DNA of 64,000 nucleotides from Hyphomicrobiales bacterium. GTDB lineage: Bacteria > Pseudomonadota > Alphaproteobacteria > Rhizobiales > JANPGK01. The position numbers and the translations under genes were made by a program. A model generated the notes under the pieces. That model did not search any database. It was not told the origin of the DNA and was given only the letters and a program-made list of their open reading frames with translations. This document shows positions 48,224 to 49,043 of this stretch, piece after piece; positions within the stretch are counted from its first letter, which is position 1; every line of letters begins with the position of its first letter. The stretch spans positions 73-64,072 of the forward strand of contig JANPGK010000012.1 in assembly GCA_031423895.1 (NCBI GenBank). Reading direction: 5' to 3'.

Positions 48224-49043
48224 ATGATTTGATCCCCACCACTATATAATTCACGCTGGTGTCGGCACCTGTTTTCCATGTGCCCATCAGCGGGTTATAC
48301 TGCATGCCGAGAGTGGTTGTGGGCATGATGCCTGCATCGCTCATCCAACCTTTCAACGTGTGTGGCGCTACGAATAATGAATGGTCATGCGTGCCGATGG
48401 GCAGCAAGCGCAGCACATATTCTGCCCCCAAAATTGCCAATAAATACGACCAAATGGTTTTATTGAGCGTGGAGAAAAACACCAAGCCGCCTGGGCGCGT
48501 TAAATCAGCGCACATCTTCACAAAGCCGGCTTGGTCGCCCACATGCTCGATCACTTCCAACGCGCACACTACATCAAACTGCTGGCCTTTGGCGATCAAT
48601 TCACTGGCATCATAGCTGCCATAGGTGATGCCTAGCCCTTGTTCGGCATTACGTTTTTTGGCAATTTCAATGTTCGGCGCCGATAAATCCAACCCCGTGG
48701 TGGCAAACCCCATGCGCGCCAGCGGCTCGGTGAGCAACCCCGCACCACAGCCAACGTCTAGGGCGGTGAGGTGGGAAAATAAACCCCTCTCCCTTGACGG
48801 GAGAGGGATGAGGGGTAATACCCCGAATGAAGGGGTGGGTGAGGGTGGTGTGCGTGTTTCACCCTCATCCGATTTGCTGCGCAAATCACCTTCTCCCGTC
48901 AAGGGAGAAGGAAGTGACGCCATCACCGCATCGCGAATAAACTTCAACCGCACGGGGTTCATTTGGTGCAATGGGCGCATGGGGCCGTTTTCGTCCCACC
49001 ATTCATTGGCCAGTTTATCAAAATTTTCTGTGTGTAGCGACAT
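48222..49043 (-). CDS. ubiG: Ubiquinone biosynthesis O-methyltransferase UbiG, carrying an in-frame repeat-derived insertion
   Basis: [36 protein letters not shown].. is followed by ..[16 protein letters not shown].. and ..[11 protein letters not shown]... The ORF-track start at 49547 is a spurious extension antisense to lysC. Confidence 0.9.
   Translation of the reverse strand: [273 protein letters not shown]
48785..48917 (+). repeat. Triple-hairpin repeat, family A, copy 2, located inside the ubiG coding sequence
   Basis: It contains ccctctccc-ttgac-gggagaggg, then ..gggtgaggg..ccctcatcc.., then ccttctccc-gtcaa-gggagaagg, and ends in aagtg. It is read on the minus strand as [45 protein letters not shown]. 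Confidence 0.88.

Follow-up and report, generated by a model that had tools for sequence, protein, structure and literature searches.

Two described systems come close to the repeat reported here. The G/C-rich intrastrand triplex motif TMECO, also known as BoxC or PIT, was defined by Holder et al. 2015 (PMC4666352) as CCCTCNCCC-N3-6-GGGNGAGGG-N3-GGGNGAGGG and has 3610 occurrences in 262 proteobacterial genomes, some of them in inverted pairs. It was reported in Proteobacteria only, is always intergenic in E. coli MG1655, and had no link to known mobile elements. Single strands of the motif adopt a triplex in vitro, and in vivo footprinting failed to detect the triplex. The second system is that of the RPE elements of Rickettsia (Ogata et al. 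2000), palindromic repeats which, according to the accounts given in PMC10969869 and PMC3184786, lie in frame in housekeeping genes, where the encoded peptide fits the fold of the host protein, and also between genes. A 2024 review of MITEs (miniature transposable elements with inverted repeats) considers such events outside Rickettsia merely 'conceivable'. Here we describe a palindromic repeat that lies in frame inside the ubiG gene, in a 64,000-nt stretch of contig JANPGK010000012.1 that will be called the window. By its sequence, the repeat is a pair of inverted units of a variant BoxC/PIT/TMECO motif. The reading that we consider probable is that a non-autonomous element of this type inserted in a linker of UbiG and is translated as a loop, leaving the fold intact, and that the enzyme tolerates it.

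The ubiG coding sequence (48222 to 49043, minus strand) starts with an ATG at 49043, preceded by AAAAGG, and ends with a stop codon at 48222-48224; it encodes 273 residues, repeat included. The translation matches the TIGR01983 UbiG profile with 243.7 bits (cutoff, 102.95) in a single stretch, with residues 6-267 covering profile positions 3-228 of 228, and its best sequence matches in the PDB are the UbiG structures 4kdc, 4kdr and 5dpm. An earlier note on this DNA had proposed that a peptide within UbiG is the minus-strand reading of a repeat. This is exactly the case: repeat copy 2 (48782 to 48917, minus strand), when translated in frame -0, yields residues 43-87, which end in PSRERG. When aligned with E. 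coli UbiG (4kdc), query residues 7-38 pair with chain residues 25-56 and query residues 84-268 with chain residues 57-241; the chain is thus contiguous at a place where about 45 query residues have no counterpart. The nearest relative found among 5.8 billion clustered proteins (P0002; 229 aa, 74% identity outside the gap) is also devoid of the segment, and in the protein alignment with it the 45-residue insert follows FIRDAV-MA. At the DNA level, alignment with the contig of this relative (L001) yields one clean block with 132 nt net extra in ubiG, equivalent to 44 codons. The repeat had been described as a triple hairpin of 133 nt that adds some 45 aa without loss of frame. The in-frame insertion and the open reading frame (ORF) stand, with a net gain of 44 codons; the triple hairpin does not, as the element contains more hairpins than three.

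The insertion site lies between the N-terminal helix of UbiG and motif I for S-adenosylmethionine (SAM) binding. As anticipated in the earlier note, removal of the repeat restores the spacing of the family: the linker between NPxR and motif I measures 63 aa in the window protein, 19 aa in the nearest relative, and 28 aa in 73 of the 97 homologues in which it could be measured (range, 19-34 aa). No other part of the family varies as much in length as this linker. Two UbiG homologues (P0028 and P0109) have the same linker independently expanded to 59 and 54 aa, and the 25-30 extra residues are unlike the peptide encoded by the triplex motif. A translation start downstream of the repeat is ruled against by the position of the first start codons after the insert, which fall within or after SAM motif I. 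With such a start the conserved N-terminus and motif I would be lost, and hence no functional enzyme would be produced. Intron, intein and recoding hypotheses were also set aside, as the reading frame is just open and no match to an intron family was obtained. Frame -0 is one of two stop-free frames among the six of copy 2; one or two of six are stop-free in each copy.

A structural model of the protein was obtained with AlphaFold2 (AF2), with a mean predicted local distance difference test score (pLDDT) of 80.2, a predicted TM-score (pTM) of 0.81 and values above 90 in the core. Its best structural matches are again 4kdc, 4kdr and 5dpm (TM-score, 0.83-0.89 when normalised to the target). Residues 48-77, located between a helix at 23-43 and a helix at 83-89, have pLDDT below 50 and are modelled as coil without secondary structure. 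The prediction is therefore that the insert forms a disordered loop after the N-terminal helix and that the UbiG fold is kept. The 45 residues of the loop are rich in Pro, Ser, Gly and Glu. A homologue search with the insert peptide gave nothing that scored, and no function can thus be assigned to the loop on the basis of homology. Outside the insert, the window UbiG retains each of the 54 columns found invariant among 12 homologues; the SAM motif I DVGCGAG and the WWD..LH..NP block are present as well.

Three copies of the repeat are found in the window. Copies 1 and 3 had been called intergenic, and so they are: copy 1 (2799 to 2920) occupies the dnaK-dnaJ intercistronic spacer, between the dnaK end at 2779 and the dnaJ start ATG at 2936, and copy 3 (50942 to 51071) lies between the divergent genes for a peroxiredoxin (start 50915, minus strand) and gltB (start 51187, plus strand), with its end 30 nt upstream of the peroxiredoxin ATG. 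A mechanically delimited peroxiredoxin ORF (50428-51081, minus strand) runs open through copy 3, thereby gaining 54 repeat-derived residues; the real start is the ATG at 50915, which has an AAGGAA ribosome-binding site. In sequence, copy 2 is distinct from both copies 1 and 3. Copies 1 and 2 have in common an inner hairpin with the stem GATTTGC/GCAAATC, read on the minus strand in copy 2; judged by it, the two copies have opposite orientations. In Rfam, no family was found at the gathering threshold, and a permissive threshold gave chance-level matches only.

The architecture of the element can be described as follows. Each unit has the plan CCYTCTCCC-N5-GGGAGARGG, a second loop and GGRTGAGGG, and the whole element runs from one terminal hairpin through a short loop or variable hairpin, GGRTGAGGGG, a spacer, CCCCTCAYCC and another loop or hairpin to the other terminal hairpin. 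The terminal-hairpin pattern CCYTCTCCC-N5-GGGAGARGG has six matches in the window, two in each of the three elements, against 0.00 expected. In copy 2, the G-type terminal hairpin is CCCTCTCCC-TTGAC-GGGAGAGGG (48785 to 48807) and the A-type is CCTTCTCCC-GTCAA-GGGAGAAGG (48889 to 48911), both with a 9-bp stem of 100% complementarity and no mismatch to the pattern. Between them lie the central blocks GGGTGAGGGTG and CACCCTCATCC (48837 to 48870), one third-strand block per unit, which moreover pair with each other as a central imperfect stem (48837-48847 with 48860-48870; 11-nt arms, 91% complementarity); the type of each block matches that of its adjacent hairpin. The A-type half has a second loop of 18 nt and the G-type half one of 29 nt; each loop contains a hairpin and is followed by the third block GGATGAGGG or GGGTGAGGG. 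The hairpin in the expanded loop of the A-type unit is GATTTGC-TGC-GCAAATC (48871 to 48887), with a 7-bp stem that is also present in copy 1 at 2828-2844; the other inner hairpin is at 48812-48824. The ubiG repeat copy folds at -74.4 kcal/mol (z = -7.5).

Assignment to the TMECO family is supported by several traits. Elements in the window also have three blocks, namely a C-rich 9-mer, a loop of 3-6 nt and the purine 9-mer GGGAGAGGG, and the mirror-repeat 9-mer GGGTGAGGG; there are many copies per genome, inverted pairs are frequent, and no association with a transposase is known. Furthermore, classic units with a 3-nt second loop make up 41 of the 191 units among the loci that were fetched. 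The strict TMECO definition fails, however, on three counts: the length of the second loop (14-29 nt with its own hairpin in the window copies, versus 3 nt), the A-type stems, and the intergenic location, as copy 2 resides in ubiG and four other genic copies are known elsewhere. The G-type half (CCCTCTCCC-TTGAC-GGGAGAGGG) fits the strict stem, while the A-type half (CCTTCTCCC...GGGAGAAGG) is outside; each window element contains one half made of the co-varying blocks CCTTCTCCC/GGGAGAAGG/GGATGAGGG, which the published CCCTCNCCC...GGGNGAGGG formula does not cover. A scan with the full-element pattern in one genome per GTDB species detected at least 120 loci, which are distributed over Alpha-, Beta- and Gammaproteobacteria, Chloroflexota, Planctomycetota and Dormibacteraeota. 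Hence, unlike TMECO as reported, elements of this type also occur outside Proteobacteria, and in frame inside genes. Across the fetched loci the length of the second loop is bimodal, with 41 units of 3 nt and 126 units of at least 10 nt. The long loops comprise 109 distinct sequences, of which 91% fold a hairpin of at least 4 bp compared with 50% of shuffles, mostly with GNA triloops; their structure is conserved, their sequence is not. Head-to-tail tandem arrays of triplex-motif units, which repeat every 54-108 nt or so and have terminal hairpins in common, were also observed (L103 2533-2905, L025 5159-5397, L112 4288-4502, L030 and L036), in Stenotrophomonas, Roseiflexus, Frateuria, Caldilineales and Dormibacteraeota. 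Br-REP1 and Br-REP2 of Bradyrhizobium were considered and discarded, as their sequences are different.

Variation among units is not independent from block to block. Three variable positions, placed mirror-symmetrically, together constitute a single base triad, either C-G*G or T-A*A. In 240 of 241 units the base at position 7 of the purine stem changes together with that at position 3 of the third block (Fisher p = 2e-61), and in all 20 mixed-type elements the type of the third block agrees with that of its own hairpin, not with that of its central-stem partner. Mirror symmetry, and with it the potential for a triplex, is thus kept between purine stem and third block. Such a pattern is what a triplex constraint would predict, although two old linked haplotypes could also account for it. 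Inside the window, the inner hairpin common to copies 1 and 2 belongs to a G-type unit in copy 1 (2803-2852; CCCTCTCCC/GGGAGAGGG/GGGTGAGGG) and to an A-type unit in copy 2 (48862-48911; CCTTCTCCC/GGGAGAAGG/GGATGAGGG). Comparison of the two copies thus reads as a coordinated switch of three positions inside one genome.

In-frame residence is not restricted to ubiG. For 116 elements in genome loci, we searched for open frames of at least 60 codons on both sides, and 40 of the ORFs of this kind were scanned against Pfam. Four of the 116 sampled elements (about 3%) were found in frame inside conserved domains, and each case was checked against solved homologues. These are the isoleucyl-tRNA synthetase (IleRS) of Sphingomonas hominis HHU CXW, a cultured isolate, where query residues 638 to 698 fall between chain residues 414 and 419; the valyl-tRNA synthetase (ValRS) of a Sphingorhabdus metagenome-assembled genome (MAG; query 522 to 566, 1gax 473 to 478); the TGT of an Anaerolineales MAG (query 339 to 393, both ends at residue 326 of 6ygl, in the zinc subdomain); and a DnaE-family polymerase of an Aestuariivirga MAG, in which the alignment of the PHP domain breaks at residue 104, that is, at the start of the element. 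The S. hominis IleRS is annotated by NCBI as an intact isoleucine--tRNA ligase. Among the remaining ORFs, 33 of the 40 (long ORFs spanning elements in high-GC genomes) had no Pfam domain, and three others, at L017, L008 and L066, showed one on a single side of the element; these 36 were taken to be spurious or doubtful. A possible fifth case was detected in a Betaproteobacteria MAG (L002 735-1709), where a HODM_asu-like protein matches its Pfam profile only from position 97 onward, right after the element (aa 100-138). In the literature consulted, nothing was found that links this motif family to in-frame genic insertions.

The IleRS site was surveyed in the best 120 orthologues (P0121-P0240), which are 74-90% identical, come almost all from Sphingomonas and include named species; 111 of them could be anchored. 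The segment equivalent to residues 639-697 of the S. hominis protein (L037) is 37-94 aa long. A frame-a element peptide (PSPLxGEGxGEG...PHPxPLPxGERE) was found in 55 of the 111 orthologues, including named cultured species, a second variant (SRLREGLGEG...PPASGRG) in 12, a third variant in four and a single-hairpin remnant in eight. Ten orthologues harbor instead the peptide of a different repeat family (STSLSTNG...FALSEVEG), and nothing recognisable is present in 22. The site is therefore a hot spot, and strains named S. faeni differ among themselves. These observations indicate that an element of this type is compatible with life inside an essential single-copy gene and that it persists, or recurs, across a genus. 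By analogy, the Sphingomonas IleRS would provide the strongest indirect support for the proposed reading of ubiG.

How the element moves was approached through its flanks. No target-site duplication above chance was detected in 117 elements (k = 1-8, within the range of shuffled controls), and no flank preference rose above shuffled controls or yielded a strong consensus. The lack of a target-site duplication fits movement as single-stranded hairpin DNA, and the inner hairpin shared by copies 1 and 2 points to copying within this genome. The full inverted-pair element was also found on 36 IMG/VR contigs classified as viral or prophage (L123-L158), many of which look like prophage regions of isolate genomes. 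A BLAST search of plasmids with the ubiG repeat copy gave no match, and no RAYT gene was identified within the 64-kb window, where no systematic search for transposases was made. We thus envisage that the element spread inside the genome by copying, perhaps moving as single-stranded hairpin DNA with the aid of an HUH/RAYT-like enzyme or by template switching, and that one copy entered the UbiG linker that joins the N-terminal helix to the Rossmann core. Its net contribution of 132 nt is a multiple of three, and of the frames on that strand it is read in the single one that lacks stops; ribosomes would therefore translate it as a 45-residue loop, predicted to be disordered, with the methyltransferase fold and the conserved residues intact. 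Because the linker is naturally variable in length, the insertion would most likely be tolerated as a near-neutral passenger.

Like the RPEs, the element in ubiG is a multi-copy palindromic repeat of about 100-150 bp found in frame in unrelated housekeeping genes; we take it to be an unrelated sequence family, no direct homology comparison having been made. In the accounts cited above, RPEs are confined to Rickettsia, and up to about half of the copies are genic in RPE families, whereas the family described here is cosmopolitan and about 3% of its sampled copies (4/116) are genic; GC content around 50% and the gene content of the window also suggest a host other than Rickettsia. Resemblance to the REPINs, doublets of REP sequences that RAYT transposases mobilise (Bertels and Rainey 2011, PMC3116915), lies in the presence of two short inverted palindromes that form a long hairpin without target-site duplication, and in the notion that copies within a genome act as an evolving population. 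REPINs, however, are lineage-specific, vertically inherited and extragenic, in contrast with a motif that is nearly identical across phyla. Classical MITEs, derived from DDE transposons, share with the element the existence of terminal inverted repeats, represented here by the terminal hairpins, but not its lack of target-site duplication. Intragenic ERIC, BOX and RUP repeats also provide examples of small repeats with open frames fused to, or located within, chromosomal ORFs (Delihas 2007; Croucher et al. 2011; as treated in PMC3184786); they belong to other sequence families and hosts, and in those accounts most extend gene ends rather than residing inside conserved catalytic domains.

Is the insert-bearing UbiG still active? 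Sequence, model and analogy concur in suggesting that it is. Both flanks of the insert bear the mark of purifying selection: relative to L001, the ratio of nonsynonymous to synonymous substitutions (dN/dS) is 0.08 over the 40 N-terminal codons, which means that this part has been under constraint as a translated sequence, and 0.15 over the 180 C-terminal codons; yet dS is 0.9-1.4, near saturation, with a closest relative just 74% identical, so these low ratios reflect a long-term history and cannot show constraint after the insertion. This is one of several points that weigh against a functional enzyme. An open frame is by itself a weak indication of selection, as about 1 in 9 random insertions would keep the frame and be free of stops (one third for a length divisible by three, times two stop-free frames of six). 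Moreover, all the hairpins of the element are intact, which fits a recent event on which selection has yet to act. Lastly, a scan for terminators detected a candidate at codon 87 on the sense strand of ubiG (48773 to 48809, minus strand), formed by the G-type terminal hairpin followed by TTATTTTCCC; its stem has 11 pairs, its loop 5 nt, and the tail is T-rich. This site, identified by match to the consensus only, could truncate transcripts. The last three points favor a different explanation: that a recent insertion inactivated ubiG, which would now be a young pseudogene left by chance with an open frame (probability, about 0.1), its function being supplied by a different gene or pathway. We regard this explanation as unlikely. 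Inactivation would not require that the insert sit in the one length-variable linker of UbiG, outside the core, nor that all conserved residues be kept and the model retain the UbiG fold; elements of the same type are found in frame in single-copy essential genes of cultured bacteria, with conservation across a genus; and no second ubiG is present within the 64-kb window. A metagenome scan for close relatives of this ubiG gave a 32%-identical fragment as its only match.

The insert might also have been kept because it is useful, either as an mRNA attenuator or stabiliser akin to REP/BIME sequences or as a new surface loop of UbiG involved in binding to the membrane or to the Ubi complex. The location of the three window copies in or beside transcribed regions (the dnaK-dnaJ spacer, the 5' region of the peroxiredoxin gene and ubiG), the high stability of the RNA fold, the hairpin plus T-run sites at copies 2 and 3, and the conservation of an element peptide in the Sphingomonas IleRS are all compatible with a function. 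We nonetheless hold this possibility to be quite improbable. The insert peptide is predicted to be disordered and has no scoring homologue, and the motif was devoid of promoter and terminator activity in E. coli according to the earlier tests cited in PMC4666352. In addition, the IleRS site holds varied frames, other repeat families or nothing, a mixture that speaks for tolerance rather than for a specific function. A trivial explanation, collapse of the repeat into the gene during assembly of this metagenome-derived contig, deserves mention because the window is found on a single contig with one member sequence and repeats can mislead assemblers. It is, however, very hard to sustain: the same gene continues on both flanks of the insert, collinear and in frame, while a chimeric join, which is thereby excluded, would connect different loci; the sequence of copy 2 is unique when compared with those of copies 1 and 3; and equivalent insertions occur in isolate genomes. 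Translation of the inserted element as a tolerated loop remains the probable reading.

Two further repeats were observed in the window. A second REP-like family, unrelated to the element in ubiG, is made of two hairpins, ATCCTCGGG-N5-CCCGAGGAT and ATGGTCGGG-N5-CCCGACCAT, with sites at 48155-48220, 50369-50419, 25453-25484 and 32866-32897. It occupies 3' gene ends, lying between the ahcY and ubiG stops, which converge, and after the lysC stop. There is also a direct repeat of 169 nt with 92% identity (9244-9412 and 9457-9625), whose copies start 213 nt apart.

What these observations add to the earlier note is that the repeat in ubiG belongs to a cosmopolitan, previously described motif family, and that in-frame copies recur elsewhere. 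Occurrence of selfish DNA inside protein-coding genes would thereby be extended beyond the reduced genomes of Rickettsia and their RPEs to a family of many free-living bacteria. Essential enzymes can carry such inserts for long, the clearest case being IleRS across Sphingomonas. A practical consequence is caution in annotation: repeat-derived peptides sit within real proteins, and an intergenic copy whose open frame matches that of the gene downstream can mis-extend its call, as in the peroxiredoxin ORF at copy 3. A wider proposal, which we advance tentatively and with some doubt, is that inverted pairs of the triplex motif are cosmopolitan, cross-phylum protein-coding palindromes that insert repeatedly in frame in essential enzymes (UbiG, IleRS, ValRS, TGT and DnaE-family polymerase) much as RPEs do in Rickettsia, and can persist there on genus-level timescales. 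If this is true, the near-perfect co-variation of the three blocks from C-G*G to T-A*A, including the switch between copies 1 and 2 of the window, would be the first evolutionary evidence of in vivo selection on triplex formation or mirror symmetry. In any case, such three-way co-variation gives a practical way to approach whether bacterial intrastrand triplex motifs fold in vivo.

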